Below are positions 8,661-26,039 of a stretch of DNA of 38,384 nucleotides, piece by piece; within the stretch, counting starts at the first letter, position 1, and every line of letters starts with the position of its first letter. The notes beneath the pieces were generated by a model. It searched no databases and was not told the DNA's origin. It saw only the letters and a program-made list of their open reading frames with translations. The position numbers and the translations under genes were made by a program. Source of the DNA: a bacterium (GTDB taxonomy: Bacteria; Patescibacteriota; Minisyncoccia; Minisyncoccales; UBA1441); the NCBI GenBank assembly GCA_029559515.1, contig JAKQBO010000009.1, positions 1 to 38,384 of the forward strand, given 5' to 3'.

Positions 8661-10691
8661 ATGGTTTCTCCTAAGTTGCAAAACATCGTTGTTCGGACTA
8701 TGCAGCGAGACTTGGAGATGTTAGAACGGGGCGAAGTCCCGGGCCGAGCTGGTCGTCCTTCTAGCAAAGCCGAAGAGATGATCAAGCAGGCCCAGTCGGC
8801 CATTCGCCAGGCTGAGGCTGAAAGAGGCGTTATGCGCCCTCCGACCCCTTCTCTGGAAACAGCCCCCGCTCCTTCTTCTAAAGAAAAGGCTCAAAAAATA
8901 GCTGAAGAAAAGAAAGCTGAAGAAGAAAGAAAAAAGATAGCAGAGCAGAAGAAGCAAGAGGAGCTGTCTCGTAAAGAAGCCGAGGCCCCTCGCATAACCG
9001 AAGAAGAAAAGAAACGAGTTGAAGCTGAAGCCCTGCGCCAAGCTGAAGAAGAAAAGAAACAAGCTGATAAAGAACGGTGGCTAGAAATTTTCTCCGAGGC
9101 TGAGAAAATTGCTCAAACTAAAAGCCTCATTCTGCCTGATATCAGTGAGGTCGAAGAAGTCACAGATTCTTTGTTTAAAATCGAGCGAGAGATTGAGCTA
9201 GTTCGCCTTGAGCTGGCAGAAATTCCTGCCCGAGAAAACATTTTGTTACCGGAAAAGAAAAAACTTTCTGAACAAAAAGAACAACTTGAGAGAGAATATC
9301 AAAAAATTATTCACCGGCTAGAGGAATTAAAAATAAAACGGCAACAAACAGAACAGGCTGAGGCTCGAGCAACTACCAGCGACAAGAGAAGGAAATTCGA
9401 AGAACAGCGCTGGCAAGTAGCCAAGAGACAAAGAGAGGTAGAGCAGGAAAAATGGACTAAAAAGGATGAATTAGCCGGACTGAGTGCAGCTTTAGGCCGC
9501 CTAGAAGACCAGGTTCAAGAGCTAGAACAGCGGCGCCAAGGTTATGAAAGCCGTCTTCAGAAACTTAACTCCCAAAAAGAAGAATTAGATATTCGAAAAG
9601 AGAAGATTGATCTGCGCCGGGAGCTAGAAGAGCTAGAGCCTGCTAAAGAAAAACCTATTCAGCAATTAAAAGAACTGGAAAACCAGAGAGAAGAAATTCG
9701 GGAAGAGCTTAGAGCTATTCTAGCCGAGGAAAAGAAAGTCGAAGAAAAGGAAATTGAGCTTCATCAAAAAATTGAAGCCTGCACTAATGACGAGGAAAAA
9801 CGACGGCTCACCAAAGACCGCTGGTCTGTTGAAAAAGAAAGAGAGTCTGTTGAAAAGGATCGTTGGCAAATTGAACAGAAGGTGGCGGCCCTCAGAGAAC
9901 AACAGCGGCAGATCATTGAGCCTTATCGAACCATAGTCAGTAAAGAGCAGCAAATTTATCAGAGATTGAGAGAAATCGATCTTCTGTTGGCTTTTGGCCT
10001 AGAAGCCGGCCGTCAAAAGATCAAACAACGGGCTCAGCAAGAAGAAGATTTAAAAGAAAAGCGCCAGCGCGGAGTTTTAACTCGAACCCATCAGCAGCAG
10101 CTTGAAGCTGAACGCCAGCACCAAGAGGCAGAAGCGAGGAGGAAGAAAGAATTAGAAGCTTTAGCTTTAAAGCAGCAAGAAGAAGCTGAGAAAGAGCGGG
10201 AACGGCAACGCTTAATTAAAGAGCAAAGAGATAAAGCAGAAGCAGAAAAAAGACAAAAAGAAGCTGAAGAAGCAAAAAAGGCGGCTGAAGTCAAAGAAGC
10301 TGAAGAAGCAAAAAGGGCTGCCGAAGCCAAAGAGAAAGAGGTAGCCGAAAAAGAACCCCTCTTCTCTGAAGACCAGTCCATAGAAAAAACTGAAATAAAA
10401 GAGCCGGCCGACGTTGCCACCGCCCGCGACATCTTTATTGAACAACTAATGGCCTCAACCTCTGAAGAGGAAGAGGAAAGAGAGCAGTTTTTGCGCCGAG
10501 TTAGGGGTGAAGGCGCGAGTATTCCGGCCGAAGACCAGCTTGAATCACAGTTAAAAGAGGGTGTTGTTTTCCGGCCGGTTCCGCAGAAACCAAACCGCGG
10601 ACAGAAGATAATCGCTCGCGTCCTGATCGTGCTTTTGTTAATCGGCTTAGGCTTAATAGTCTATCTTATCTTCAGCGGGTATTTACTTTAA
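8661..10691 (+). CDS. Long E/K/Q/R-rich coiled-coil protein with a C-terminal transmembrane anchor
   Basis: About 500 aa of highly charged helical sequence; the only hydrophobic segment is VLIVLLLIGLGLIVYLIF at the extreme C-terminus; N-terminal RTMQRD motif. Confidence 0.8.
   Translation: MVSPKLQNIVVRTMQRDLEMLERGEVPGRAGRPSSKAEEMIKQAQSAIRQAEAERGVMRPPTPSLETAPAPSSKEKAQKIAEEKKAEEERKKIAEQKKQEELSRKEAEAPRITEEEKKRVEAEALRQAEEEKKQADKERWLEIFSEAEKIAQTKSLILPDISEVEEVTDSLFKIEREIELVRLELAEIPARENILLPEKKKLSEQKEQLEREYQKIIHRLEELKIKRQQTEQAEARATTSDKRRKFEEQRWQVAKRQREVEQEKWTKKDELAGLSAALGRLEDQVQELEQRRQGYESRLQKLNSQKEELDIRKEKIDLRRELEELEPAKEKPIQQLKELENQREEIREELRAILAEEKKVEEKEIELHQKIEACTNDEEKRRLTKDRWSVEKERESVEKDRWQIEQKVAALREQQRQIIEPYRTIVSKEQQIYQRLREIDLLLAFGLEAGRQKIKQRAQQEEDLKEKRQRGVLTRTHQQQLEAERQHQEAEARRKKELEALALKQQEEAEKERERQRLIKEQRDKAEAEKRQKEAEEAKKAAEVKEAEEAKRAAEAKEKEVAEKEPLFSEDQSIEKTEIKEPADVATARDIFIEQLMASTSEEEEEREQFLRRVRGEGASIPAEDQLESQLKEGVVFRPVPQKPNRGQKIIARVLIVLLLIGLGLIVYLIFSGYLL
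10257..10328 (+). repeat. 36-bp in-frame tandem duplication (KEAEEAKKAAEV / KEAEEAKRAAEA)
   Basis: aaagaagctgaagaagcaaaaaaggcggctgaagtc followed by aaagaagctgaagaagcaaaaagggctgccgaagcc. Confidence 0.85.
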
Positions 10692-10744: not shown

Positions 10745-11731
10745 TTAAAAACTAAGATAAGTTCCTACTGAATAGCGAGCTAACGGATTTGTTGCCCCTC
10801 TGACGTCAAAGTGCAGATGGCATCCGGTTGACCGTCCAGTTGTGCCCATTCGGCCAATCTGCTGTCCTTGAGCAACGCTCTGGCCAGCCTTCACCCATAT
10901 CTCTGAAAGATGCCCGTAATAGGTAACTACTCCGTTAGGATGGAGGATTTGTACTCTATTTCCTCCGATACTAATGTATCCGGCTCGCTGGACCGTTCCG
11001 GCGGCCGCAGCATAAATCGGAGTACCGCATTGGTTCGCAATATCAATTGCATTATAATGGTGTAGCCCCTGGGTGATGCGACCAGAGGTCGGACGGATAA
11101 AATAAGAAGAGGCTACCGTTGACTGGGTGCTGATTTGAGGCGTGGTCAGTTGCTTGCCTCCGGGAATGATCAAAACGTCTCCAATATATATTTCATTGGC
11201 ATCACTTATCTGATTGAAAGAAAGAATTGCTGCCTCCGAAACTTTATAAGCGCGAGCAATGTGGCTGAGTGTTTCGTTTTTCCCGACTAAATGTAGCGCT
11301 CCTGAAACCGGCAAGATAATTAAGCTATCACCCTCTTTTAAGGTATTATTACGGTTAAGGTCGTTCGCCCAAGAGATCGTGTCAGCTGAAATTCCGAACC
11401 TTTCAGCTAGCCCAGAAACAGTGTCGCCGGACTGAACGACGTAGTTAAAGATTTGGCTTTGATAGTCATAGCCGCCAGCCACCACCGTGCCCAGAGCCTG
11501 ACTGGTCACACTGGGGGAGGTATAAACCTGAAGGCTGGACTGCTCAATTAAACTCAGATGAGAAAAATCAAAACTCGCCGTCTTATCCAAAGCTGGAATG
11601 AACTCGCTAGAAGAGCTTAGTTCATATTGATCAAAAACCAACTCGGACGGCGAGACCGGCCAAACAGCGGTTATTAGTAACCCTATCGCAAGAGTAAGAA
11701 AAGCACCAACTACTCTTTTTGACAGATGCAT
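10745..11731 (-). CDS. LysM (x2) + M23 family peptidoglycan endopeptidase
   Basis: N-terminal signal/TM; YVVQSGDTVSGLA and HLVGKNETLSHIA LysM repeats; HYNAIDIA, YYGHL and GCHLHF M23 zinc motifs. Confidence 0.92.
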   Translation of the reverse strand: MHLSKRVVGAFLTLAIGLLITAVWPVSPSELVFDQYELSSSSEFIPALDKTASFDFSHLSLIEQSSLQVYTSPSVTSQALGTVVAGGYDYQSQIFNYVVQSGDTVSGLAERFGISADTISWANDLNRNNTLKEGDSLIILPVSGALHLVGKNETLSHIARAYKVSEAAILSFNQISDANEIYIGDVLIIPGGKQLTTPQISTQSTVASSYFIRPTSGRITQGLHHYNAIDIANQCGTPIYAAAAGTVQRAGYISIGGNRVQILHPNGVVTYYGHLSEIWVKAGQSVAQGQQIGRMGTTGRSTGCHLHFDVRGATNPLARYSVGTYLSF

Positions 11732-11770: not shown

Positions 11771-12612
11771 ACAAGTTATCCCCAATCGAACCTAATCTAG
11801 CTAACCACACTAGAAATTTGCTGAAGAAATACCAGCTGCGACCCAATAAACGTCTTGGGCAAAACTTTTTAATTGATGACCGCGTTTTAAATGATCTTCT
11901 TCAGGCAGCGGAGCTGACTTCTCAGGACACCGTTTTAGAGGTCGGTTCCGGCTTAGGCACCTTAACCCGGGCTCTCGCCCGCCGAGTTCGAAAGGTTATC
12001 TCTTTGGAAAAAGACCGCCGGCTAAACGATATTCTGGCCTCCGAATTAAATGAATTTGACAATGTTTCTATTCTCAATCAAGACATTCGGACTTTTCTGT
12101 CTCAAAAAGACATCCTCTTCGATAAAGTGGTGGCCAATCTGCCCTTTTATCTGACTTCGCCCCTAATTACCGGGTTGATGAAACTTTCGCCGCCTCCTTC
12201 CCTGATGGTTCTAATGGTTCAAAAGGAGGTGGCTGAAAGGATTTGCGCCCAGCCACCCAAGGCCAACCGAATGGCTGTTCTCTGCCAGATCCAGGCTAGG
12301 TGCCGGCTGGTTCGCCAGGTGCCGGCTCGGAGTTTTTGGCCCGCTCCCGAGGTAGACGCTGCCATCCTGAAGATGAACACATCTGGGATATCGCCCGATC
12401 CGCTTTTAGAAAAATTGGTTAATGCCGGTTTTCGTTCCCCTCGGAAGACCCTAGCTAACAACCTCTCTTCTTTTCCCGGCTTCAATCAAGAAATATTGGC
12501 ACAATGCAACCTAAACCCTAAAGTTCGAGCGGAGGCCTTGACTTTACAAGACTGGAAACATCTTAAAAATTGTTTTCTCGGCCAAAAAAATGTTATAATC
12601 AGGCCAATATGA
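11764..12612 (+). CDS. rsmA: 16S rRNA m6,2A dimethyltransferase RsmA/KsgA
   Basis: KRLGQNFLID, VLEVGSGLG, VVANLPFY, MVQKEVAERI, FWPAPEVDAA, RKTLANNL, RAEAL. Confidence 0.95.
   Translation: MSNKLSPIEPNLANHTRNLLKKYQLRPNKRLGQNFLIDDRVLNDLLQAAELTSQDTVLEVGSGLGTLTRALARRVRKVISLEKDRRLNDILASELNEFDNVSILNQDIRTFLSQKDILFDKVVANLPFYLTSPLITGLMKLSPPPSLMVLMVQKEVAERICAQPPKANRMAVLCQIQARCRLVRQVPARSFWPAPEVDAAILKMNTSGISPDPLLEKLVNAGFRSPRKTLANNLSSFPGFNQEILAQCNLNPKVRAEALTLQDWKHLKNCFLGQKNVIIRPI
12591..12599 (+). promoter_or_regulatory. Extended -10 (TGtTATAAT) for the T4SS-like operon, within the 3' end of rsmA
   Basis: Perfect TG-N-TATAAT 9 nt upstream of ATG 12609; TTGTTT lies 18 nt upstream of the -10 hexamer. Confidence 0.6.
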
Positions 12613-15170
12613 AAAAGAAAACCTTCAGAAGAATTTGTTTTCTTTTGATTGCTATTCTGGCGGTGGTTTTATTTATTGCCCCTGAATTTGTTGGACAAGC
12701 CGAAGCTGACACAATATACGAGAATATCCCAATTGTAGGAGGGCAGGGCGAAGCACTTCCTTTCTGGGCTTGGATTAAAAGACTTGTCCAGGATTTCTTT
12801 TGGTCTCTCCTCTCGTTAGTGTTATTGGTGATTAATTCGGTTTTTCTTGGAGCATTGGCTGTTGCTGAGATGCTCTTTAACGTCATCGCCAGTCCTGGCT
12901 TTATTTCTGAATCATTTACCGGTCCTGACAACCCCTTTGTTTACCCGAACTGGGTTCTGATCCGTGATTTGGCGAATATTGGTATTATCCTGGGCGTTGT
13001 TTTTTGCGGATTGAAAATGGCCTTTGGTCTCGATAGCCGTGCAACGAAGAAGAGCCTAGTTACTCTCATTGCTTTAGCTTTTTTGATCAACTTTACACCT
13101 GTTTTACTCGGCCTTTTAATCGACGCGGCTCAAATTGCCATGAACCAATTTATGGGCCCGGGGTTGACTCAGACGACCGGCATGGCTTCGGGGGTAATGA
13201 AAGCTTTCGCGAATATAAGAGATATTGGAGAAAACCAGATGGTCGCCTTTATTCAGATGTTAACCATGGGAGCAGTCTGCTTGTTTTTGGCTTTTATATA
13301 CTTTGTTTTGGCTATTGTCTTCCTGGTTCGCTACATCGTCCTCTGGGTTTTAGTAATTCTTTCGCCACTGGCCTTTTTAGCCTACGCTTTTAAAGGTGGT
13401 CAGAAGATTTGGAATATGTGGTGGTCTAATTTTATTAGCTGGACTTTTATTGGCGTCCCCATTGCCTTTTTTGTCGCTTTGGCTGGCTGGATGTACGGCT
13501 ATGGCCAGCCTTTATGGGATACAACCGCCCGAAATATGGCTCTTCGAATAAGCGATGAGGGATTGGCTGGAAGTGGCGTTATTTCGTCTGAAGTTTTTGC
13601 GCCCATCTTCCCCGGCATATTAATTGTGATCGGGTTCATGATCAGCCTTAATATTGCCCCGGCTTTCGCTAAGACGGTCATGGATTATACCAAGAAAGGC
13701 GCTCATGGTGCTGCGGCCTGGAGCTGGGGCAAAGTTAGATACCGTACCCGCGATCTTCGAGACAAGAGTAGAAGAGAGGTCCACGCCCGGCACGTTAAGG
13801 AAGACGCTCAAGCTCTGGGCATCAACACTGCCGGCTGGGATGACCCTAAAAAGAGTTATGCTGTACGCGCTCAGGTGGCGAAAGAGCTGCAAGAAAGCAA
13901 CCAGGCTAAAGGAGCGCAGAAGGCTCATGCTGCCAGGTATCTCGACGTTCAGCAAAAGATCGATGAACGCAAGCTGGAGCACTCTCGATTCGCTAAGAAG
14001 TTAAAAGATGCTAGTGAAGAAGAGCTTGATGCTCTGATTTATCAGCCCACGCCTCAGCTTGTGCCGCACACCAAGACCGGGGTTGCCAAAAAGAGGGCTC
14101 TGGCTTTACAGGAAGCCATGAACCGGGATAAAGGCAAGGCCCTGAAAAAGTTCAAGAACCTTGCCTCGTTAAGCGAAGAAGAGATCTTACAGACAGCAGG
14201 TGCTTTTGCTAGCCTGGGGCCGGCTTATCAGGGCACCCTTGAAAATTTTCTGGTTGCGGCAAGCGGCAAGCATGGCAAAACAATTAAAGAGCATGAAGAA
14301 GCGCTCGGCATTGAGAAAGGATCCCTCGATAAGGCGATAAAGAAGCTTAGGGCCGAAGACAACGAGCTCTTGGCTCATGTGTACCAAAATGCTTCAGAGG
14401 AAAACCAACGGCTTCTTCTGGATAATTTGATTGAGGCCGATACCAAGACAATTATTAGCACTATCCGCCGATTAAAGGCAGAAGAGAGAGGGCCTTTTGC
14501 CTTTAAATTAAAAGAGGCTGCTGAAAGAGCCGGTGGCGTCAAAGCAAAAAATTTCCAACATACAGCAAGATTTCTTAATGCACAGTGGTATCTTACCGAC
14601 TATGAAAAAGATCTCACTCCAGAGGCCGACCAATCAAGGATGAAAATCAAACAGATAGTAGAACGGGCTAAGGTGATAGAAAAAGAGACAGACCAGGGCA
14701 AGAGACAGAAAGAGGTTGCTGAAATTGTTTCTAAAATCATCTCTTCGGACAATGAGCAACGATCAGAAATTATGAACCGCATAGCGCCCGTGGCTCCTTC
14801 GGTTCATCAAGAAGCTCTACAGGAAACCATAAGGAAAGAATTAATTGGCCGCGCTAAGCAGATTAGGCGTATGAAAGACGATCCCCGAATGGAGCAAGAA
14901 AGCAAAGACCTCTCGGCTAAGCTTGCCGAGGACTTAAAGAAGATCGGCCCAAAGCAATGGCAAGAATTCCTTAAGGAAGATTTAATCGAGCGCGTTTATG
15001 AATTCCAGCAGAAGATAAAAAACGCCAAGACTTTGGAAGAAAAGAAGAAACTAGGTAATCGCATGATGCAAAGAGATATCCTGGATGAGATTAGCCTTCT
15101 TAATTCTAAAGACCAAAAAGAGATTACTGATCTAATAAACAAAATTTATGATCAAGAAATCCCGGCATAA
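12609..15170 (+). CDS. VirB6/TrbL-like polytopic membrane protein with a long charged C-terminal tail
   Basis: WVLIRDLANI..., LINFT...LIDAA, and LVRYIVLWVLVILSPLAFL...W..WW motifs typical of VirB6/TrbL-like proteins; position upstream of prgI/virB4. Start set at ATG 12609 (ATGA overlap with the rsmA stop). Confidence 0.72.
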   Translation: MKKKTFRRICFLLIAILAVVLFIAPEFVGQAEADTIYENIPIVGGQGEALPFWAWIKRLVQDFFWSLLSLVLLVINSVFLGALAVAEMLFNVIASPGFISESFTGPDNPFVYPNWVLIRDLANIGIILGVVFCGLKMAFGLDSRATKKSLVTLIALAFLINFTPVLLGLLIDAAQIAMNQFMGPGLTQTTGMASGVMKAFANIRDIGENQMVAFIQMLTMGAVCLFLAFIYFVLAIVFLVRYIVLWVLVILSPLAFLAYAFKGGQKIWNMWWSNFISWTFIGVPIAFFVALAGWMYGYGQPLWDTTARNMALRISDEGLAGSGVISSEVFAPIFPGILIVIGFMISLNIAPAFAKTVMDYTKKGAHGAAAWSWGKVRYRTRDLRDKSRREVHARHVKEDAQALGINTAGWDDPKKSYAVRAQVAKELQESNQAKGAQKAHAARYLDVQQKIDERKLEHSRFAKKLKDASEEELDALIYQPTPQLVPHTKTGVAKKRALALQEAMNRDKGKALKKFKNLASLSEEEILQTAGAFASLGPAYQGTLENFLVAASGKHGKTIKEHEEALGIEKGSLDKAIKKLRAEDNELLAHVYQNASEENQRLLLDNLIEADTKTIISTIRRLKAEERGPFAFKLKEAAERAGGVKAKNFQHTARFLNAQWYLTDYEKDLTPEADQSRMKIKQIVERAKVIEKETDQGKRQKEVAEIVSKIISSDNEQRSEIMNRIAPVAPSVHQEALQETIRKELIGRAKQIRRMKDDPRMEQESKDLSAKLAEDLKKIGPKQWQEFLKEDLIERVYEFQQKIKNAKTLEEKKKLGNRMMQRDILDEISLLNSKDQKEITDLINKIYDQEIPA

Positions 15171-15616: not shown

Positions 15617-16036
15617 ATGCAGTATCTCGTTCCCCAATTTATTGAGCGCGAGTCTAAAATCGTCGGGCCTTTGAGCTTTAAACAGGTTATTTTTCTGGGT
15701 GCAGCTGGCGGACTAAGCCTGGCGGTCTGGTTTCTTTTGCCGACAGCCGTCGCCATGGTTCTTATCTGCCTGATTGTAGCCGCCGCCGTTGCTTTAGCCT
15801 TTTGGAAGCCACACGGGCGCCCGCTGGCTGAAATTATTGTTTCCGCCTTCCGCCATTCCATTTCGACTCGCCAATACTTATGGCGGAGACAATCAATTGA
15901 AGACCTGCCGATAATTAGCAGCGAAGACGAAAAGACAAACGATGTCAAACTTGACCTCGAAGACCAGCAGGCCTTGATGGAGCTTTCACCGCGGAGCCGG
16001 TTGGAAAAACTAAAAACCCGAATCGAATCTAAATAA
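15617..16036 (+). CDS. prgI: PrgI family (VirB3-like) protein
   Basis: MQYLVPQFIERESKIVGPLSFKQ, two TM helices, then GRPL...P/R.YLWR. Confidence 0.85.
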   Translation: MQYLVPQFIERESKIVGPLSFKQVIFLGAAGGLSLAVWFLLPTAVAMVLICLIVAAAVALAFWKPHGRPLAEIIVSAFRHSISTRQYLWRRQSIEDLPIISSEDEKTNDVKLDLEDQQALMELSPRSRLEKLKTRIESK

Positions 16037-16038
16037 TC

Positions 16039-16692
16039 ATGAAAGGCTCGAGCCAACAATTTTTACCAATCGGCGAGATAAAAGAAGGGGTCCTCGTCCT
16101 TAAAAGTGGCGGCCTGAGGGGGATTTTAATGGTGTCGTCAATTAACTTCGCCTTAAAGTCGTCCGATGAACAGCAGGCCATTATTTATCAGTTTCAAAAT
16201 TTCCTGAATTCTCTTGATTTTACCACTCAAATTTTAGTTTACTCTCGGCGAGTGAATATGGCCGGTTATTTGGAAAAGCTAAAAAATCTAGAAGAGCGGC
16301 AAACCAACGACTTAATCAGAGCCCAGACGGCTGATTACCGCCGTTTTATTAAGCAGGTCTTAGAGAAGGGCGATATTATGAGTAAGACTTTTTATATTGT
16401 GGTTCCTTATACCCTGACTGAGGCTCAAGGAACGGTTTCAGCCACTCGAGAAATTTTCCGAAAAAAGAAGACTTCGCCAACCGGCTCCCGGATATCAAAC
16501 GAAGCATTTAATCGCGCCCGTTCCCAGTTGATGCAAAGAATGGAATTTGTCGCCATTGGTCTGAGACGGTGCCAGTTAGGGGCCGTTCCTTTGACCTCGC
16601 CGGAGCTAATTGAAATGCTTTGGGCTTTACACCACCCAGACTCAGCTGAACGGGGTTATTATCCGTCTATTATGCCGGAAATTATTAATTGA
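16039..16692 (+). CDS. TraC-like / VirB4-associated protein
   Basis: SQQFLPI.EIKEGVLVLK.GG.RGILMVSSINFALKS.DEQ.AII..FQNFLNSLDF...KTFYIVVPY, located between prgI and virB4. Confidence 0.7.
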   Translation: MKGSSQQFLPIGEIKEGVLVLKSGGLRGILMVSSINFALKSSDEQQAIIYQFQNFLNSLDFTTQILVYSRRVNMAGYLEKLKNLEERQTNDLIRAQTADYRRFIKQVLEKGDIMSKTFYIVVPYTLTEAQGTVSATREIFRKKKTSPTGSRISNEAFNRARSQLMQRMEFVAIGLRRCQLGAVPLTSPELIEMLWALHHPDSAERGYYPSIMPEIIN

Positions 16693-16694
16693 TT

Positions 16695-18509
16695 ATGTTA
16701 GATAAAATTAAGAAAAAACTTACCAAGGGAAGTAAGCCCGAGACTACCGGGGCCGGCAGTAGATTTGTCACCCTCCATGATTTAATTGCGCCTCCCTCGA
16801 TTCAAGTTAATCAGAACAGTATTGATTTAAGGGGGCGGCTAATTCGGACTATGTTTGTCTTCTCTTATCCCCGCTATCTGTCGGTTGGTTGGCTAACCCC
16901 GATTATTAACATGAATCGGCCGATAACAATCTCCTTTTTCTTTCACCCCGTTGAAACAGCCCCTATTCTTAAGAAACTCAGGAAAAAGACAACTGAAATC
17001 CAAGCCGAATTAATGGAACGCGAAGAGAAGGGCCTGGTCCGTGATCCGGAGCTAGAAACTGCCTTTCAGGATGTAGAAGATCTCCGCGACAAGTTGCGCA
17101 CTGCTCAGGAAAAAATGTTTCAGGTTGGTATTTACTTCGCCATTATGGGGAACAACGAAGAAGAGCTGCGCGATACCGAGGTGGAAATTCGTTCTATCTT
17201 AGAGTCCCGACTGGTTTACACCAAGCCAGCTTCCTTCCAACAAAAAGATGGGTTTTTAACTTGTTCGCCCTATGGTCTTGACGAGCTAATGATCCACACC
17301 CCTATGAATACCTCTCCCCTTTCCAGTGTTTTTCCTTTTGTTTCATTTGACTTGAGTTCTAATGAGGGCATTCTCTATGGTATTAATAAACATAATAATT
17401 CCCTAGTGCTTTTTGATCGCTTTTCACTGGAGAACGCTAACATGGTGATCTTTGGAAAATCAGGCGGCGGAAAAAGTTATGCCGCGAAACTAGAAATTCT
17501 GAGACTGATGATGGAAGGGATAGACGTAGTGATCGTGGATCCGGAGAATGAATATGAGTTTTTGAGCGATGCAGCTGATGGTTCTTTTGTCAAAGTCTCT
17601 CTTAACTCGACTAGCCACCTTAATCCCTTTGATTTACCTAAGATCGGAGTAGATGAAAAACCAGAAGACGCCCTGCGACGCAATGTTGTTGAGCTGGTCG
17701 GCCTATTTAGAATTATGTTGGGCGGACTGACACCCGAAGAAGATGCCATCATTGACCAGGCAATTGTTGAGACTTACGCCGCTAAAGACATTACGCCCGA
17801 TAACAACTTTGACAGAGCTCAGCCTCCCCTAATGAATGATTTCCAGGCTGTTTTAGAGAGCATGGAGGGGGCCGAGTCTCTCAGCCAGAGAACGCGTAAA
17901 TTTACCCGGGGCAGCTATGCCAATTTCTTTAATAACTACACCAATGTCGACATTGATCGCCATTTGGTTGTTTTTGGCATTCGTGATATGGAAGACGAAC
18001 TACGGCCCATGGCGATGTATATCATTCTCCACCACATCTGGAATGAAATAAGAGGAGAGTTAAAGAAAAGAGTTGTGGTCATTGACGAGGCCTGGGTGGT
18101 GATGCAGTCCCCAGATGGAGCTTCATTTCTTTTTGGGATGGCGAAGCGGGCCAGAAAGTACTGGCTTGGCCTGACAACTATTACCCAAGATGTCAATGAC
18201 TTTCTGGGCTCTCCTTATGGGGTGCCGATTCTCAACAACTCCTCCCTCCAGCTACTCATGAAACAGTCGCCGGCTTCAATTGATATTCTAGTTAAAACCT
18301 TTGCCTTAACTCTGAGCGAAAAACATCTAGTACTATCAAGTAATGTTGGCGAAGGGCTCTTCTTCGCCGGATCAAAGAGAGTCGCAGTTCAGGTTGTTGC
18401 TTCATACGCTGAAGACCAGATCATTACTAGCGACCCAGAGGAGGTAATTAAAATTAAAGAAGCGCAACGCGCTCGCAGGAGAGATGAGTTTATTAGGGGG
18501 TGGCGCTAA
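16695..18509 (+). CDS. virB4: VirB4-like type IV secretion ATPase
   Basis: Walker A GKSGGGKS, VDPENEY, LNPFD, Walker B VVIDEAW, RARKY, TQ motif, GEGL. Confidence 0.9.
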   Translation: MLDKIKKKLTKGSKPETTGAGSRFVTLHDLIAPPSIQVNQNSIDLRGRLIRTMFVFSYPRYLSVGWLTPIINMNRPITISFFFHPVETAPILKKLRKKTTEIQAELMEREEKGLVRDPELETAFQDVEDLRDKLRTAQEKMFQVGIYFAIMGNNEEELRDTEVEIRSILESRLVYTKPASFQQKDGFLTCSPYGLDELMIHTPMNTSPLSSVFPFVSFDLSSNEGILYGINKHNNSLVLFDRFSLENANMVIFGKSGGGKSYAAKLEILRLMMEGIDVVIVDPENEYEFLSDAADGSFVKVSLNSTSHLNPFDLPKIGVDEKPEDALRRNVVELVGLFRIMLGGLTPEEDAIIDQAIVETYAAKDITPDNNFDRAQPPLMNDFQAVLESMEGAESLSQRTRKFTRGSYANFFNNYTNVDIDRHLVVFGIRDMEDELRPMAMYIILHHIWNEIRGELKKRVVVIDEAWVVMQSPDGASFLFGMAKRARKYWLGLTTITQDVNDFLGSPYGVPILNNSSLQLLMKQSPASIDILVKTFALTLSEKHLVLSSNVGEGLFFAGSKRVAVQVVASYAEDQIITSDPEEVIKIKEAQRARRRDEFIRGWR

Positions 18510-19035
18510 AAAAAGCCAGGGCGGATTGGAAACATTTACTATCGACATCGCGATTATGTATATTGTCGCCTTTATTTTGGATATGGCCGGAATAATCCTG
18601 GCGGCCATAACCCTTACTATTATCCTAGCTCCGATCGCGATAATCCTTCAATGGATTTTATCTCTCTTGGGTGGTCTGATATTCACCCTCTGGATTGTGT
18701 TTGTGCGGTCACAATCATCTGCCGAAGAAACAAGCCATGAAATTCTCGAGCCAGAAATACCCCAGAAGACAGCTCCTTCTCAGGCGTCATCTCTCGATGA
18801 TTCTGCGCCAAAAAAGCTAAATCAAGCCACCGAAGTACAGCCTACAGTAACGCCGCCTAAAAAACCTCTGGGGAAAAAACCGGGGCTTATGAAAAAATCC
18901 AACCCTTCTTCTTTGTTGATGAAAAAATGGCTGAAGAGAGTTTGCCTCCCCGGGGTGGTTGAGTCAATTCCGATTGTCGGGAAAATATCCTTCACCTGGG
19001 TATTAGCAGTCTATCTTGAGCAAAAAAATGGTTAA
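18484..19035 (+). CDS. Small membrane protein of the T4SS-like locus
   Basis: Hydrophobic N-terminal half, Pro/Ser/Lys-rich linker, C-terminal ESIPIVG..FTW.LAV. Start uncertain. Confidence 0.65.
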   Translation: MSLLGGGAKKSQGGLETFTIDIAIMYIVAFILDMAGIILAAITLTIILAPIAIILQWILSLLGGLIFTLWIVFVRSQSSAEETSHEILEPEIPQKTAPSQASSLDDSAPKKLNQATEVQPTVTPPKKPLGKKPGLMKKSNPSSLLMKKWLKRVCLPGVVESIPIVGKISFTWVLAVYLEQKNG

Positions 19036-21562
19036 GATGCATTTTTTAATAAAAATTTTAATTTTTGCTTTGATTATTTGCCCGGCTAGTGTTCTGGCGG
19101 TGGAAATTCCCAGCGACGATATTGAGACCCTGCCCGAACTGGTTAACACCGTCTTTAGCGTCATATTCGGCTTGTCCGGCATAGCAATCTTCGTTGTTTT
19201 AATAATTGGCGGATTGGGCTATTTAACCGCCGGCGGATCACCGATGTTAATGGCTAAGGCCCGACAAAGGATTATTATGGGCCTGGTTGGATTTGGGTTG
19301 GTTTTTGGCGGCTACCTCATTATCGACCAAATAAATCCTGACATTTTGACCGGAATCTTTACGCCTTGGGATATCGATAACCCCGAGCCGTCCGACCCTC
19401 CAACGATACGGGAACCGGATACTGACACGTATGTCTATCAGGAGATCCCCTTCGGGACAATTTTAGAGACCAAAATATTAGCTAAAAACATAACCTGCTA
19501 TGGGGGAGAAGGGTTGGTTGACTGCCACACTGGGGAGCCGATATTAGAAGAAGAAATTGAGCGGATTATTTATATTATGGCCAAAGAATTCCCTGATATC
19601 TGGGGTGAGGCAACCAAAGAAGACGCCGAATTGGCCTACCTCTGCTACGACTTTGACGACCAGGGAAACTTTACTCAGACCGATCCAATAGGGCACAACG
19701 ACCGGCTTGACTGCATTAGGCGCGTTGTCCAGGCTTTTGAGAGAAAAAGCATGGCCTTAAACAATCAAGTCCTTGAATTAAAAAGACTAACTGAAGCATG
19801 TTCCTGCGGACAGTGTAATTGCGGAGAGTGCGCTGTCTGCGAAGACCCGGCAGAGGTTTGTGGCAACCCTGAGGAATGCGCGCCAGAGGATGAAGCCTGC
19901 TTGCTGGCTATTCAACAGTGCTGGGATTATTGGGAAAACTGTAGTCCATGCGACCCGGCCTATAATAGCACTTGCCCCTGTGGGCAATCCTGCGATGGCG
20001 ATCCATGTGGGGCTCAGCGAGCAGCCATAGACGTTATTCGCCAAAATTTAAACATGGAACAAATCGTTGGAGGACATGATCTGCTCCAAGACAACGAGCT
20101 CGTCAAAGTTTTACCCGAAGATTATGATGAGATGACCTTAATCAACCAGGTGCGCTATCTAGCTAACCGTTTTTTCCCACCCCACATTGCCAGTCTTGAA
20201 GTTGATTTAAGTTATTTAGTTAAGGTCCGGGATATGTATCGAGACCAGTGTAGCTACGGCACTCACCTTTCCCAAGCTAATTTTATGGACTTAATAGCAT
20301 CTCTGGACTCGATTCCTTATGTTGAAACAGAGGTTAACAAGTTTTGTCTTAACGGCAACGAGGCTCGCTGGGGAGAGAGTTGCCCCGAGGAGCAACAAGT
20401 CAGAACAGATTACTGGTGCCACGAATTCAACTGCACCGACTGCGAAGAAGAAGGCGAAGCAAAGCTAGCTTGCGGTGTTTGCAATCTTGACGTTTTAGAA
20501 AAAGGGACTGAGGTGCCTTTTGCTCGGGCCGGTGAAGACAATGTTTCTTACAAGTGTTCCCAATACTATATTAACCAACAAGATGGAGAATTAGACCGGG
20601 AAGCCGACGACGAGCTTGGCATTATGTGCCGTATTCAATCAGATGGCGAACGCTGCCAGGAATCAACCGGCAATCCGGTAACCTTCTACTGTCCTCAGCC
20701 TGAAAGCAATGTTCCGGTCGAAACAACCGAACTAGTCTTAACTCGAGAATTCAACATTGATCACGATGTAGTCAATGGTTACCGAGCTGGCTATATTGAG
20801 CTGGGCCAATTGATTGACAGCAGCCGAGCCTATATCGATGCAATCAGAGCCCCCTTGGTGGGGATGGTTCGGAACGGCGTTCCTAGAATTACCTGTCCTT
20901 CTTTTGATAAAAATGACCCGGATAACCTCTGCCTCTTGTATCTCTTGCCAACGCGATGTACCTGCAATGGCGTCATCCAGACCCAGTACGAACCAGGGGA
21001 TGAATCGCTCTGCAATATCTCTTGCGACACCTGGCACGGCTGTTTGTGTAACGCCTGTGCGGAACCCTGCGATGGCTGCTCTTGTTCAACCTGCCTGCCC
21101 ACTCTTAATCAGCCCGAGGAATATAATCCTTATCCCTGCCCCCAGACTGTTATTAATCAGAGACAAGGCGAAACCACTAATGCTTATGGATTAATCAGGG
21201 AACAGCACGATACTGTTGTTAGCTTAATTCGAGCCACTGGTTTAGCCAACAATCAGCCAAGCCGGACAGAGATGTTTAATCAGCTTCAGGACAGCCAGAA
21301 AAAGTTGCAACGATGCGTTAGTGGCTTCCAGGTTGATTATACTGAAAGAACCGTTGCCCGGGCCGTTAACTGTCGCTATTTGTTGGACAATCAAGCTTTA
21401 GATAAGTGGCAGATTAGTCCCTTTTTCGAAACGTGCTATCCTTATAACAGTGAGAGATTGACCCCTCAGCAGCGAGCTGCCTGTCAGGCTGATCGCAATA
21501 GTCAGGATTGTTTATCTGCTATTCGTAATTTAATGTTTGACTATTTCTGCCTTATAAAATAA
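19028..21562 (+). CDS. VirB2/TrbC-like pilin domain fused to a ~730-aa cysteine-rich extracellular region
   Basis: Signal peptide; pilin motif IIGG..YLTAGGSP....AR.RI....G...YLI...INP; about 53 Cys by manual count. Start at 19028 or 19037. Confidence 0.8.
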   Translation: MVKMHFLIKILIFALIICPASVLAVEIPSDDIETLPELVNTVFSVIFGLSGIAIFVVLIIGGLGYLTAGGSPMLMAKARQRIIMGLVGFGLVFGGYLIIDQINPDILTGIFTPWDIDNPEPSDPPTIREPDTDTYVYQEIPFGTILETKILAKNITCYGGEGLVDCHTGEPILEEEIERIIYIMAKEFPDIWGEATKEDAELAYLCYDFDDQGNFTQTDPIGHNDRLDCIRRVVQAFERKSMALNNQVLELKRLTEACSCGQCNCGECAVCEDPAEVCGNPEECAPEDEACLLAIQQCWDYWENCSPCDPAYNSTCPCGQSCDGDPCGAQRAAIDVIRQNLNMEQIVGGHDLLQDNELVKVLPEDYDEMTLINQVRYLANRFFPPHIASLEVDLSYLVKVRDMYRDQCSYGTHLSQANFMDLIASLDSIPYVETEVNKFCLNGNEARWGESCPEEQQVRTDYWCHEFNCTDCEEEGEAKLACGVCNLDVLEKGTEVPFARAGEDNVSYKCSQYYINQQDGELDREADDELGIMCRIQSDGERCQESTGNPVTFYCPQPESNVPVETTELVLTREFNIDHDVVNGYRAGYIELGQLIDSSRAYIDAIRAPLVGMVRNGVPRITCPSFDKNDPDNLCLLYLLPTRCTCNGVIQTQYEPGDESLCNISCDTWHGCLCNACAEPCDGCSCSTCLPTLNQPEEYNPYPCPQTVINQRQGETTNAYGLIREQHDTVVSLIRATGLANNQPSRTEMFNQLQDSQKKLQRCVSGFQVDYTERTVARAVNCRYLLDNQALDKWQISPFFETCYPYNSERLTPQQRAACQADRNSQDCLSAIRNLMFDYFCLIK

Positions 21563-21568
21563 TCAATT

Positions 21569-23053
21569 ATGCCTAAAAATATATTATTTTTTGCTTTAAC
21601 TGCCTTATTGTTTTTATCTCCATTAGTCGTAGTCGGCGACGCCCAGGTTCGTCAGTTAGAAACAACCTACCCCGACATTCCCGGGGTTGATACCATTGGA
21701 GAAGACGCTACTCTACCGCAATATCTAGAGTATATTTATTATTTCATTATTAGCTTAACTGGGATTGCCGCCTTGATTATATTGATCTGGGGCGGGTTAA
21801 TTTATTTAACCTCAGCCGGTTCGCCCAATAAAATGAAGGAGGGTATTAATCGTATTATTGGCGGACTATCCGGCGTTGCTATTATTTTATTCGCTCACCT
21901 CATTTTAACCACAATCAATCCCCATATCTTTGGCTCAATTACTCAAAAAATAGATCTTCCCGCTGAAGGATATTGCTTAAAAGGAGACCAGGTCTACTGG
22001 CGAGAAGAGTGTCCCGAGACATGGGCTCCTATAAACAATGATACTTGTCAGCAGGTAATCGGCCAAGCTCCTTATACCCACTATAACTGCTGCCGGGTTG
22101 AGAGAATCTATTGTTTCGATCAAAGCGTCAATGATTTGGCTAGAATTGGTTTTATCCCTAAGGAGATAAACTTCCGGAGCAAAGAGCCAAGAATTCACAG
22201 TGTCTTTTTCTTTGAAGAGCCCGATTACCAGGGAGATCAACAGTCTATGATAAACATGAAGAGACAGCTAAACAATGACATTTGGTGGCCGCTTAGTCAC
22301 CTCGGAATTCAGTTTATCAGATCTGTGTATCCAGTAAGGAGAAGCCCCGGGTTTGTTATCTTTCCTACTGACAATTGTTCGTATGATTTTAGCGATTTTA
22401 GTCGCAATATGCCGACTATGGCCTACTCTCGACCAACTTCTCGTTTTGACAAAGAGGCCGTTTCCATATTAAGAGTGCCCCGAGGCGAAGATGAGGATTG
22501 GTTTGATTATGTTTCGTGGGGAGGGGTGTTTTTCTCCTCCGAGGGATATCACGGAGAGTGTCAGATTATTTTTAGCGAAAGGCCTTCTATTCCCGGACAG
22601 GGCCAGAACTGTTTCCTTCCTAGACAGAATTTTCCGAATGCTCAAATTGGCAGTAGAGAGACCCCTCAGAGCGCTTACATCTTTAGACGAAACATCGCTA
22701 ATGATTTTTCAGGCCAAGTCACCTTTTGCCCTTTATTGAATTATGGATCTATAGAGGATCCCAATAATCCGGTTGAATGCCATACTGTTGAAGCTAGTGA
22801 GATTATAAGCCAAAACACAACTGACTCTATCTGGAGAATTAATGATCCGTTAGATCACTGGACGGGAGGAAGACAAGAAAACATTCTTTCTGTAAAAGTT
22901 GACGGAAAATTTCTGGTTGTTCTAAATTCTGGACTAAATTTCACAGGAAGATGTACAGTTATCGATCGAGATACCCCCAATCTAATTGGCTCATATGTTC
23001 TTGGAGACGAAAATCGTGAGATCATGTCCATCGCCATCATCCCCTTACAATAA
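21569..23053 (+). CDS. VirB2/TrbC-like pilin domain fused to beta/gamma-crystallin-like repeats
   Basis: Signal peptide, LETTYP, pilin motif IWGGLIYLTSAGSP...RI.GG..G...LILTTINP; C-terminal FEEPDYQG, FSSEGYHG, NSGLNFTG...SI motifs. Confidence 0.75.
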   Translation: MPKNILFFALTALLFLSPLVVVGDAQVRQLETTYPDIPGVDTIGEDATLPQYLEYIYYFIISLTGIAALIILIWGGLIYLTSAGSPNKMKEGINRIIGGLSGVAIILFAHLILTTINPHIFGSITQKIDLPAEGYCLKGDQVYWREECPETWAPINNDTCQQVIGQAPYTHYNCCRVERIYCFDQSVNDLARIGFIPKEINFRSKEPRIHSVFFFEEPDYQGDQQSMINMKRQLNNDIWWPLSHLGIQFIRSVYPVRRSPGFVIFPTDNCSYDFSDFSRNMPTMAYSRPTSRFDKEAVSILRVPRGEDEDWFDYVSWGGVFFSSEGYHGECQIIFSERPSIPGQGQNCFLPRQNFPNAQIGSRETPQSAYIFRRNIANDFSGQVTFCPLLNYGSIEDPNNPVECHTVEASEIISQNTTDSIWRINDPLDHWTGGRQENILSVKVDGKFLVVLNSGLNFTGRCTVIDRDTPNLIGSYVLGDENREIMSIAIIPLQ

Positions 23054-23054
23054 T

Positions 23055-23516
23055 TCAACTAGCCGGGTAGATCACAATGTGACGCTGATGACCGCGCCCG
23101 CTGCTTTGGCTGTAGACATCCTGCCTTTCGGCCAGAGCAGAGTGAATAATCCGGCGCTCCCAAGCCCACATTGGTTTTAAAGCCTGTGGCTTTTTAGTTA
23201 AGGCAGCCTGATCAGCCGCTGTCCGGGCTAAATCCTCTAGGTATTTGGCTTTCTTTTCTTTATAATTATTAATATCCAGGTCGATAAAAAGATGGCGGCC
23301 GGTCTCTTTGGCCAAAATTTTCTTAATTAAGTTCTGAGTCTCAACTAAAGTTTCGCCTCTTTCACCGATAAAGAAAGGTGCTTCTTCAACCCAAAAAGAG
23401 ATCTTAATGGTATCTGAGTTTATCTCTTCAAACTTAATAGGTGAATCAACATCTAAAAAACTGAAAAACTTTCTGACTTTTTCCTTTATTTTTTCTGTTT
23501 CGGAGGGTCGGAACAT
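23055..23516 (-). CDS. jag: Jag/KhpB (EloR) RNA-binding protein, KH + R3H, without Jag_N domain
   Basis: FIGERGETL, LDINNYK, LKPM.AWERRIIH..L, S.G.G..R.IVI; downstream of yidC. Confidence 0.9.
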   Translation of the reverse strand: MFRPSETEKIKEKVRKFFSFLDVDSPIKFEEINSDTIKISFWVEEAPFFIGERGETLVETQNLIKKILAKETGRHLFIDLDINNYKEKKAKYLEDLARTAADQAALTKKPQALKPMWAWERRIIHSALAERQDVYSQSSGRGHQRHIVIYPAS

Positions 23517-24193
23517 AATGACTTTTTCTTAAGATAATATTGTTGCCCAATCATAAACAGGGTGTTTATTAACCAGTATACTCCAATGACAGCGCTTAAT
23601 CTAGTTAAGACAATAAACGCAAAGGCTGGAAGAAAGTAGACCATATTCTTTTGCCAGCCGCTCTTTTTGCCCGATGTTTCGGCTGTTTTAAGCTGCCAAT
23701 ATTGGATTACCGCAACGACAACAGCCAAGATAATATTCGACTGGACTAGGTCCGGGTTACCGAGAAATGTCAGCTCGGCCGCTTCCAGAGAAGGCGTAAA
23801 AGAATAAAGGTGGCTGTTTAGAGCCAAAACACTTAAGTCTTGAAAGATTCTAAAAATAGCAATAATTATCGGCAACTGGATCAGCGGATAAACAAGGCTT
23901 GATAAAGGGCTGATGTTGTATTTTTTATACAAGGCCATTATTTTTTGAGACTGCTCCGCCGGGTCCTTTTTATATTTTTTCCTAATCTCTTTCATCTCGG
24001 CGTCAATCTTGCTCATCTTTTCTTGGGTTCGGGTGGCCTTCAATGAAATGGGAAAGGTGATCAATTTAATTATTATTGTTACCAAAATAACCGACCAGAT
24101 CAGATCCTGACCGGGAAGATAAACATAAAATAAGATCAGCAGATTAAGAATCGGCTGATAAAGTAAAACATTAAATATATCTCCAATTAACAT
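23486..24193 (-). CDS. yidC: Membrane protein insertase YidC (short form)
   Basis: ILVTIIIKLITFP, coiled-coil hairpin, MALYKKYNISP, PLIQLPI, VYWLINTLF..GQQ; rnpA-yidC-jag synteny. Confidence 0.92.
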   Translation of the reverse strand: MLIGDIFNVLLYQPILNLLILFYVYLPGQDLIWSVILVTIIIKLITFPISLKATRTQEKMSKIDAEMKEIRKKYKKDPAEQSQKIMALYKKYNISPLSSLVYPLIQLPIIIAIFRIFQDLSVLALNSHLYSFTPSLEAAELTFLGNPDLVQSNIILAVVVAVIQYWQLKTAETSGKKSGWQKNMVYFLPAFAFIVLTRLSAVIGVYWLINTLFMIGQQYYLKKKSLCSDPPKQKK

Positions 24194-24197
24194 AAAA

Positions 24198-24530
24198 TTA
24201 GGATAGTTTTAATAAAATGTTTTCCCAGTCTGCTTTCAGTTCCTGATAGCTTGATTTTTCCGAAGATCGTTTGGCAATAATTACAATATCCCCGACTGTT
24301 TTCCCTTCAAGAACTTCGCTTCTTACAATTTCCCTTATTCTCCTTTTTATTTTGTTTCGCTCGGTTGCCTTTTTGGCTACTTTTTTGCTTACAACAATCC
24401 CGACTCTTGTTTTATTTTCCTGGTTTGGACTTATCTTGACTAAAAGAAACTCTCCTCCGACCGCCTTTCCCTGTTGGTAGGTTTTTTCAAATTCTTTTTT
24501 TTTAGTCAAACGATTCGGGCGGGGTAACAT
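24198..24530 (-). CDS. rnpA: Ribonuclease P protein component
   Basis: MLPRPNRL.KKKEF, RVGIVVSKKV.KKATERNKIKRRIRE (RNR-type motif). Confidence 0.95.
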   Translation of the reverse strand: MLPRPNRLTKKKEFEKTYQQGKAVGGEFLLVKISPNQENKTRVGIVVSKKVAKKATERNKIKRRIREIVRSEVLEGKTVGDIVIIAKRSSEKSSYQELKADWENILLKLS

Positions 24531-24547
24531 AATAACTTAACCCCTAA

Positions 24548-24576
24548 AGGTTATCAGTCAAAAAGTCTTTAGTCAA
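24548..24576 (-). promoter_or_regulatory. Promoter TTGACT-N17-TAACCT for rnpA-yidC-jag
   Basis: -35 at 24576-24571 and -10 at 24553-24548, 17 nt before the rnpA ATG. Confidence 0.5.
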
Positions 24577-24606
24577 TTAACTTTTTTTGCCCAAAGTATT
24601 AACATT

Positions 24607-24615
24607 TTATCCCCA
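24607..24615 (+). promoter_or_regulatory. DnaA-box-like 9-mer TTATCCCCA upstream of dnaA
   Basis: One mismatch to TTATCCACA, in the dnaA promoter region. Confidence 0.55.
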
Positions 24616-24622
24616 CCACCTC

Positions 24623-24649
24623 AAAAGCCCCACTATTAAGGGGTTTTTT
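24623..24649 (+). terminator. Terminator-like hairpin upstream of dnaA
   Basis: AAAAGCCCC-actattaa-GGGGTTTTTT. Confidence 0.4.
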
Positions 24650-24692
24650 AGTAGTTCTCTTGATTTTTTAATTGTGGTAAAGTGAGTACACT

Positions 24693-26039
24693 ATGACCAA
24701 GGAAGAGTTATGGCAAGCTGCCCTAGCCCGCCTACAGTTTAGTGTTTCTCGCGCTAATTTTGCAGCCTGGTTTAAAGAGGCGGTTATTCTTGATTGGCAG
24801 GGAGACTCCGTCTCAATTGGTACTCCTAATAGCTTTTCTCAAGAATGGCTAAAGAAAAAATATCATTCAGATATTTTAAAAGCCTTGAACGAAGTCTGCT
24901 CTAAAATTAAAAAAGTAGACTATTTTGTCTCTAAGCAAAACAGAACCAGGGCTGAGGTCAGCCCGCCGGTTCCTGTTAATACCAAGCAAATACAATTTGA
25001 AGAGTTTCAACTCAATCCGAGAACCGGATTAAATACTCGCTATAACTTCAAAGATTTCATTGTTGCTTCTTTTAACGAGATGGCCTTTGCGGCAGCCGAA
25101 GCAGTCGTTCGAGAACCCGGCCGAGCTTATAACCCCTTGTTTGTTTATGGCGGAGTCGGTCTGGGAAAAACCCATCTTCTTCAGGCTGTGGGCAATAAGC
25201 TTGATGAAGAAGATGAAATGAAGATCAGGTATATTTCAGCCGACAAGCTGGTTTCCCAAATTGTTGCCAGTATTTATGAGCGCAGCATCGAGTCGCTCAA
25301 AAAAGAACTTCAACAGCTTGATGTATTAATTGTCGACGATATTCAGTTTATCGCCGGAAAAGAAAAAACCCAAGAAGAGTTTTTTCATGTCTTTAATGCG
25401 TTGTATGAAAAAAACAGCCAGATTATTCTCTCCTCTGATCGCTTGCCAAGCGCGATTCCGGCCCTAGAAAAAAGATTAAAATCAAGATTTGAGGGTGGAA
25501 TGGTGGTCGATATTAGCCGGCCTGACTATGAGAGCCGGCGGGCTATCCTTGAGACTAAAGTTAAAGAGTGGAAAGCCGAGATTGATTCGGAAGTTTTAGA
25601 TTATGTCGCAACTAATATTCAAAACAATGTTCGGGAGCTAGAGGGGGCTTTAAGGCGTCTGATTGCTCATCAAAATATTAAGAAAAATAAATTAAACACC
25701 GAAGTAGCTCAAAAGGTTTTAAAGGATTTAACCCGGACCCAAACTAAATCAGCTTCGCCTCAGAAGATAATTAGCAGCGTGGCTGATTTTTATGATTTAG
25801 ATTTAAAAGACCTGACTTCAGCTACTCGGAAAAAAGATGTTGCTTTTCCCCGCCAGATCGCTATGTATCTACTGAGAAAAGACCTAAAAAAATCATACTT
25901 AAGTATAGGCAACTTATTCGGCGGAAGAGACCATACAACCGTAATTTATGCCTGTCATAAAATTGAGAAGGAAGTTGATCAAGACGGCAGATTAGCTGAT
26001 GAAGTTAGTATGATTCGGCAAAGAATTTATGGGGAATAA
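24693..26039 (+). CDS. dnaA: Chromosomal replication initiator DnaA
   Basis: YNPLFVYGGVGLGKTHLL, DDIQF, QEEFFHVFN, RLKSRF, NVRELEGAL, RQIAMYL, GGRDHTTV. Confidence 0.98.
   Translation: MTKEELWQAALARLQFSVSRANFAAWFKEAVILDWQGDSVSIGTPNSFSQEWLKKKYHSDILKALNEVCSKIKKVDYFVSKQNRTRAEVSPPVPVNTKQIQFEEFQLNPRTGLNTRYNFKDFIVASFNEMAFAAAEAVVREPGRAYNPLFVYGGVGLGKTHLLQAVGNKLDEEDEMKIRYISADKLVSQIVASIYERSIESLKKELQQLDVLIVDDIQFIAGKEKTQEEFFHVFNALYEKNSQIILSSDRLPSAIPALEKRLKSRFEGGMVVDISRPDYESRRAILETKVKEWKAEIDSEVLDYVATNIQNNVRELEGALRRLIAHQNIKKNKLNTEVAQKVLKDLTRTQTKSASPQKIISSVADFYDLDLKDLTSATRKKDVAFPRQIAMYLLRKDLKKSYLSIGNLFGGRDHTTVIYACHKIEKEVDQDGRLADEVSMIRQRIYGE

Follow-up and report, generated by a model that had tools for sequence, protein, structure and literature searches.

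Patescibacteria carry a chromosomal type IV secretion system (T4SS) in which tandem pilins of family PF18895 occur near virB4, prgI and trsD, within a cluster located near dnaA (Quinonero-Coronel et al. 2025, PMC12102498). That paper describes the pilin arrays as variable and possibly tuned to host strains, and its survey reports pilins and no detected adhesins. T4SS pilins are required for the epibiotic growth of Southlakia (Wang et al. 2023, PMC10633639) and are among the highly expressed genes of archaea-parasitising Paceibacteria (PMC10936435). Several VirB2/TrwL paralogues per T4SS are described for Bartonella and Anaplasma, where they are proposed to widen interaction with the host surface (PMC12102498). 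In the T-pilus, both VirB2 termini face outward (10.1101/2022.09.25.509369). With regard to the crystallin fold, the motif N/D-N/D-x-x-S/T-S defines the Ca2+-binding crystallins (PMC3551895), and crystallin domains of Vibrio RbmC bind mucin O-glycans (10.64898/2026.08.03.742583).

The fusion described here bears on the role of the relaxase-free T4SS of Patescibacteria and the choice of host by these epibionts. We analyzed a window of 38,384 nucleotides from an assembly of 457 kb that is 94% complete. Conventional VirB2-like pilins are small, stand-alone subunits of about 70–120 residues. The gene at positions 21,569 to 23,053 encodes a 494-aa protein in which the pilin module accounts for approximately one fifth of the length, and it is a pilin-domain fusion, by its sequence, rather than a conventional major pilin. 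Among the best-ranked results of a literature search that reached few subscription journals, no paper was found joining the crystallin fold to T4SS pilins or to Patescibacteria. The word crystallin was absent from the main texts of PMC12102498, PMC10633639, PMC9763046, PMC10936435, and PMC12281837; in supplements, it gave four matches in PMC9763046, all to Hsp20, and of the 18 matches in PMC10936435 the 4 listed were to Hsp20 or mu-crystallin.

Secretion Cluster and Genomic Context

The fusion gene is the last of a run of T4SS genes, and a housekeeping flank marks the end of the cluster. The features of this region are:

12570..15170, plus strand: 866-aa polytopic membrane protein, probably VirB6-like (two of six homologues match TrbL/VirB6 below cut-off)
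15617..16036, plus strand: PrgI/VirB3-like protein (PF12666)
16039..16692, plus strand: TrsD-like protein (below cut-off, E 3e-7)
16689..18509, plus strand: VirB4 ATPase (CD1110 family, over cut-off)
18484..19035, plus strand: 183-aa membrane protein of no clear family, with homologues at the same position in family loci
19016..21562, plus strand: 848-aa upstream pilin fusion (PF18895) with a 53-Cys cargo that lacks a Pfam family
21569..23053, plus strand: 494-aa pilin-crystallin fusion
23055..26039: jag, yidC, and rnpA (minus strand), followed by dnaA (plus strand)

The 866-aa protein had no family match of its own, and the TrbL_3 profile matched nothing in the source genome or in the controls. 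The genes jag and yidC were assigned by family matches, and those we take to be rnpA and dnaA were named by recognition of their sequence. The fusion sits in the chromosomal T4SS of Patescibacteria described in PMC12102498 and PMC10633639. Judging by gene layout and by the number of families in the class sample, the source may be a lineage of the Paceibacteria/Parcubacteria type.

The source assembly contained five PF18895 matches, namely the two tandem fusions, pilins of 155 and 116 aa on contig C5, and a 362-aa fusion on contig C13 (12900-13985), which is located away from the T4SS cluster. This third fusion carries two Cys-bracketed, beta-rich repeats which, by eye, presumably resemble divergent InlB B-repeat-type domains. 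A 1,348-aa open reading frame (C5:1446-5489, minus strand) lies two genes from the short pilins; by eye, we take it to be a DNA gyrase subunit A-like start followed by a long, CF-initiated, intein-like insertion. A coupling-protein-like ATPase (C9:27811-28701, minus strand; PF10412 over cut-off) is encoded outside the contig of the T4SS cluster. In the window, a gene for a LysM and M23 peptidase (10745-11731, minus strand) lies beside rsmA, and it is found just 5' of the T4SS cluster in many relatives; it is a candidate wall-cutting partner of the T4SS. Positions 8661-10691 encode a coiled-coil protein of 676 aa that is highly charged and ends in a membrane anchor; its coiled-coil match is below cut-off only.

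Runs of 12 studies, covering activated sludge, digesters, landfill, and groundwater, contained near-identical DNA. The 16S rRNA match (C23:23818-26318) spans 2,501 bases vs. the 1,533 positions of the model, implying an insertion of ~1 kb that probably represents one or more introns. The published 32-520/UBA5633 clade probe had no match within three mismatches in the source 16S locus, and for this reason the organism was not assigned to the Methanospirillum parasites.

Leader and Pilin Module

Two features were identified ahead of the cargo:

21569..21649, plus strand: N-terminal hydrophobic segment, residues 2-27, a likely cleaved signal peptide (predicted from hydropathy)
21719..21916, plus strand: VirB2-like pilin module PF18895, residues 51-116 (Pfam match and hydropathy)

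The module scored 32.8 bits against a cut-off of 26.6 (residues 51-116), and the upstream 848-aa protein scored 32.9 bits against the same cut-off (residues 38-97). Hydropathy places two hydrophobic helices at residues 53-85 and 93-118, separated by a short basic loop of two Lys and one Arg. An initial sequence-only reading of this DNA had noted the motif GG..YLT..GSP...INP in both tandem genes and different cargos behind it. Both observations held: the two fusions share 34% identity over the N-terminal 119 aa (E 4e-16), with both proteins above the PF18895 cut-off, and past the pilin stretch nothing convincing was found, the next similar segment having an E-value of 0.005 over 23 aa. Identity as a type IV (T4P) pilin was rejected because the match is to a T4SS pilin family.

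The Cargo Is Predicted to Consist of Three Crystallin Domains

The cargo is predicted, from homologue profiles and a structural model, to form three beta/gamma-crystallin domains with six Greek-key motifs:

21962..22345, plus strand: predicted crystallin domain 1, residues 132-259, motifs 1 and 2 (Z 9.9 to Ciona crystallin 2bv2, rmsd 2.0 over 74)
22010..22093, plus strand: Cys-rich insert within motif 1 (C148, C160, C174, C175; from alignment)
22346..22687, plus strand: predicted crystallin domain 2, residues 260-373, motifs 3 and 4 (structural search)
22706..23050, plus strand: predicted crystallin domain 3, residues 380-494, motifs 5 and 6 (Z 10.5 to Protein S and clostrillin, rmsd 1.9-2.1 over 84-85)

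Structure prediction for residues 130-494 used an alignment of 41 homologues and gave a pLDDT of 91 and a pTM of 0.87, while prediction without an alignment gave a pLDDT of 33 and was set aside. The alignment omitted the spurious repeat protein P0017, which was one of the 16 proteins returned by a single-sequence search of cluster representatives, and the near or exact duplicates P0001, P0006, and P0008. In Foldseek, the best 43 of 59 matches (E up to 0.001) were all crystallins, and in a wide structural search non-crystallin folds began at Z 4.4. Domains 2 and 3 together superposed on the two-domain gammaS-crystallin (Z 13.1, rmsd 3.1 over 170). When the 41-sequence profile was compared with the PDB, 15 sequences were matched at E up to 1, all of them of beta/gamma-crystallin type and 14 named crystallin or clostrillin, and the best was 3hzb, a Flavobacterium beta/gamma-crystallin domain (E 0.0019). 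A single-sequence PDB search returned one unrelated match only (E 0.43). Crystallin clusters also ranked first in an Atlas feature search (0.86-0.87), which serves as a lead only.

The Pfam Crystall family (PF00030, cut-off 25 bits) matched neither the 494-aa protein nor anything else in the source genome, and among related pilin proteins it matched 5 of 64 at E up to 0.05 (best 21 bits). Standard annotation misses these domains because the crystallin fold scores below the Pfam cut-off. The Y/FxxxxF/YxG hairpin is exact in two of the six motifs (2 and 4), degenerate in motifs 3, 5, and 6, and interrupted in motif 1, and the conserved fourth-strand Ser is present in five of six. A post hoc hairpin pattern gave three matches vs. 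0.64 in shuffles (P 0.02). The motif pattern alone is weak, and the fold was accepted because of the profile and model evidence. The four crystallin-like repeats proposed in the sequence-only reading were located at residues 212, 320, 384, and 450, and the fold proposed for them is supported, with all three domains matching crystallins in the structural comparison (Z 9.9-13.1). Their number required revision to six motifs in three domains, as two had been overlooked: motif 1, which starts at residue 134 and is interrupted by the Cys-rich insert, and motif 3 at residue 262. In two family members (L027 3874-5466; L028 3-1262), one loop of crystallin domain 2 contains a long low-complexity insert rich in Asp, Phe, and Gly.

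All 12 cysteines of the protein are in the cargo, after residue 135. The short Cys-rich segment noted from the sequence is present; it is an insert inside crystallin domain 1. It is limited to the closest relatives, with C160, C174, and C175 occurring jointly in 11 of 41 aligned sequences and C148 in 15 of 41. Among the 41 homologues, which as kin are not independent, C136 and C182 occur together in 22 of 22 and the C387/C404 pair occurs in 9.

Calcium-binding motifs were sought before the fourth strand of each Greek-key motif. The canonical motif was found at none of the six positions of the 494-aa protein and at 4 of 233 motif positions in the 41 homologues; partial N/D-rich motifs occur in relatives, mainly in motif 3 (11 of 41 relaxed matches). 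Since the canonical motif is missing from all six positions, Ca2+ binding by this protein appears unlikely, although a non-canonical site could still bind it. The proposal that this was a Ca2+-binding crystallin cargo was consequently not upheld, and a Ca2+ sensor role was rejected.

Distribution and Conservation of the Cargo

Crystallin cargo was found in 9 of 11 genomes of the family, and the loci of the other two are cut by contig ends. A cargo-only profile matched 82 of the 151 genomes of the source order (66 of 135 without the 16 seed genomes) vs. none of 145 genomes from other orders of the class, which makes the crystallin-pilin cargo a marker of one order. The order-wide figure of 82 counts cargo matches, with pilin N-termini confirmed for part of them, and both incomplete genomes and divergence contribute to the lack of a match in the other 69 genomes. 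Across a sample of 251 genomes of the phylum, the profile matched three from other classes. One of these three (locus L068, genome G389) has tandem pilin fusions with a two-domain, crystallin-like cargo, for which transfer or an older origin are possible explanations. Relatives carry two or three crystallin domains and one to four cargo matches per genome.

The position of the cargo is also conserved. All eight family loci that contain both genes place the Cys-rich cargo ahead of the crystallin cargo, which is last. Among 17 loci that reach jag, the last pilin gene before it bears crystallin cargo in 16 (14 of these 16 were seeds), and the profile reached an E-value of 0.014 in the seventeenth. 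All close alleles bear the crystallin cargo behind the pilin. A search of all six frames of the 457-kb assembly for a second cargo copy or silent donors returned one match only, where repeats may be missed. Relative to genome G001, identity was 42% for the cargo, 41% for the VirB6-like protein, and 39% for the 183-aa protein.

The cargo of the upstream pilin comprises 730 residues with 53 Cys, is 38-51% identical within the family, and matched no family in a Pfam search. In other families, parts of this cargo are separate genes or adjoin peptidase or lamin-tail domains, and the upstream pilin itself bears an M23 or C39 peptidase, a lysozyme-like domain, or a lamin-tail domain. A pilin tree grouped the 12 upstream modules of the family (support 93) apart from the nine crystallin-bearing ones; this tree was built rapidly from 77 rows and 100 columns, 31 of its 74 forks are open, and deep order is beyond its reach. 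Pilin modules of one genome sometimes grouped regardless of cargo (G014, G035, G013), with mostly weak support. Alignment A2 omits L028, which is cut by a contig end, and L043.

These comparisons separate two parts of the earlier proposal. A family of pilins with differing cargos is borne out, in that the cargo of the upstream gene varies between families. Tips interchangeable among relatives are not: both cargos and their order are constant across the eight family loci, the genome has a single copy of the crystallin cargo, and the comparison of loci found the cargo invariant in kind at the family level. The swapping of whole tips or cassettes was therefore rejected within the family, on these eight loci and on all close alleles. 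Modularity holds only at deeper levels, as turnover of the upstream-gene cargo between families and as differences among relatives in the number of domains and of cargo matches.

Strain-Level Variation

Comparison of close alleles identified three strain-variable patches in domain 3:

22808..22864, plus strand: patch A, residues 414-432, including an allele with a 6-bp in-frame insertion
22931..22945, plus strand: patch B, residues 455-459, in the motif 6 hairpin
23012..23026, plus strand: patch C, residues 482-486, where other crystallins have the Ca2+ motif

From crystallin geometry, all three would be expected to lie near one pole of domain 3. The metagenome contig L063 (3,682 bp) is 99.4% identical to the window, and within residues 414-486 it has 10 changed codons (8 amino-acid-changing) and the 6-bp in-frame insertion. 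Residues 204-379 (176 codons) are unchanged, and jag, yidC, rnpA, and dnaA together have four changed codons out of 884. This clustering gave Fisher P-values of 7e-5 and 2e-7, for sites that are not independent within one tract. In a set of six close alleles, domain 3 accounts for 14 of 38 variable positions; of the 12 positions that vary in at least two alleles, 10 lie in domain 3 and the pilin part contains none. Only 5 of 30 variable cargo positions are in strands, compared with 135 of 365 residues (P 0.017). The same three patches recurred in contigs from four runs, each belonging to a separate study. In close allele P0022 and in minor contigs of run X2, most differences fall in domains 1 and 2.

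Two forms of patch A were each found with both patch C types, and runs X2, X9, and X12 contain two alleles at once. The strain data are assembled, unphased contigs, with patches spaced 66-150 bases apart vs. assembly words of 31 bases. The clustered changes and their mixed combinations may reflect recombination and diversifying selection. Among the sites listed, domain 3 had 18 amino-acid-changing and 7 silent changes vs. 8 and 31 for VirB4, the 183-aa gene, the upstream pilin, yidC, and dnaA, a comparison that pools two differently truncated lists, which cover 40 of 64 and 40 of 180 sites and derive in part from different runs. Domain 3 is rich in silent changes as well (7 of 25 among the sites listed), and strain differences in the upstream pilin are mostly silent (16 of 21 among the sites listed). 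The amino-acid-changing share in domain 3 is thus high relative to its neighbours and not clearly above neutral expectation. Of the polymorphic display that the sequence-only reading had envisaged, allelic variation in domain 3 loops and turnover of upstream cargo between families remain, and the exchange of whole tips does not.

Proposed Role and Alternative Explanations

We propose that the pilin-crystallin fusion is a calcium-independent surface adhesin of the T4SS that grips the host cell, a proposal whose chances we regard as about even. The fold is predicted, and we infer the topology, display, binding, target, and cause of variation. The signal peptide would be removed, leaving a two-helix hairpin in the membrane with both termini outside. 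Given the outward orientation of both VirB2 ends in the T-pilus, the 365-residue cargo would be exposed on the outside, anchored in the membrane or incorporated as a minor component alongside the 116- and 155-aa pilins of contig C5. The cargo would be stabilised by disulfides; its crystallin cores would provide a stable scaffold and its long loops a binding surface, whose most plausible target would be glycans or S-layer protein on the host surface. Glycan binding has a precedent in the crystallin domains of RbmC. The domain 3 loops would be adjusted between strains by point change and short-tract recombination, as opposed to whole-cargo swaps. A near-constant anchor, a conserved scaffold, and variable terminal loops would together give the protein an adhesin-like appearance. 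Several observations limit this proposal. A shared fold shows no function, and the best matches of the modelled fold are to lens and Ca2+-binding types, not lectins. Cargo divergence between genera does not exceed that of the neighbouring genes, and with 69 of 151 genomes of the order yielding no match, the cargo is not universal.

The same conservation could also belong to a structural part of the T4SS, such as a cap, collar, or spacer replacing tip or wall-spanning parts, with loop variation arising from low constraint and ordinary recombination. The cargo gene's fixed place before jag would fit such a part, as would its conserved cores and Cys pairs, the packing of domains 2 and 3 in the model like that of two-domain lens crystallins, and the silent changes found alongside the variable patches. 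Nevertheless, a domain number of two or three and one to four matches per genome suit an accessory display better, and the same three loops differ in independent samples; we consider a structural role rather unlikely. The variation could also be driven by phages that use a surface-exposed fusion as their receptor: exposed loops in which amino-acid changes cluster and alleles are mixed fit receptor escape equally well, and conjugative pili are classic phage receptors. This reading leaves the order-wide fusion of a crystallin scaffold to a pilin unexplained, however, and seems distinctly unlikely to us.

We regard it as very unlikely that the strain mosaic arose artefactually when mixed populations were assembled and that the gene encodes an ordinary surface protein that evolves fast. 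The use of assembled contigs only, a patch spacing longer than the assembly words, and the coexistence of two alleles in three runs all leave room for chimerism, but chimerism mixes alleles and cannot create them, and three patch A forms and two patch B forms each recur across separate records or studies. Most improbable of all is the initial version, in which tandem pilins exchange Ca2+-binding crystallin tips as complete cassettes and thereby form a polymorphic display. The peptidase, lysozyme-like, and lamin-tail domains on upstream pilins elsewhere, the mostly weakly supported grouping of pilin modules by genome, and the partial N/D-rich motifs of relatives speak for it; the missing calcium motifs, the identical cargo slot across family loci and close alleles, and the single genomic copy speak against it.

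Under the adhesin proposal, the fusion would be a soluble, well-predicted candidate adhesin that standard annotation misses. Its natural loop alleles provide ready variants with which binding could be tested on communities from sludge, digesters, and landfills, and they could possibly serve as host probes. The strain-variable loops make host recognition testable, host recognition itself being what we infer from the sequences. An extended form of the proposal, which we consider unlikely, is that the crystallin-tipped pilin is the host-specificity determinant of one order, with loops on a calcium-free scaffold recombined under host-driven selection in an antibody-like manner; domain 3 alleles would then predict which host strain can be infected.

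Comparison with Known Systems

The fusion resembles microbial beta/gamma-crystallins (Protein S, clostrillin, flavollin, M-crystallin, and vibrillin) in its two-Greek-key fold (domain 3, Z 10.2-10.5). Unlike these, its cargo lacks the Ca2+ motif, has long loop inserts and conserved Cys pairs, scores below the PF00030 cut-off, and is fused to a pilin. Glycan-binding modules such as RbmC M1M2, StcE X409, and the fungal GH29 fucosidase use the crystallin fold as an accessory of a secreted protein, as here. The structural matches to X409 (Z 6.2-6.3) and to the GH29 fucosidase crystallin domain (Z 8.6) were weaker than those to lens and Ca2+-binding types, in a comparison that covers the fold. The RbmC and StcE modules target animal mucins and lack a pilin anchor, whereas the host of the 494-aa protein would be a microbe. 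Variation in Bartonella and Anaplasma resides in small pilins, whereas here it resides in the loops of a fused cargo, with a pilin module that is near-constant between strains. With the T4SS pilins of Patescibacteria (PMC12102498, PMC10633639), the fusion shares the PF18895 module, the tandem genes, and the cluster neighbours. These papers treat pilins as small subunits, whereas the 494-aa protein bears a 365-residue, three-domain cargo. The pilin-crystallin fusion is a conserved and apparently undescribed variant of the known Patescibacteria T4SS pilins.
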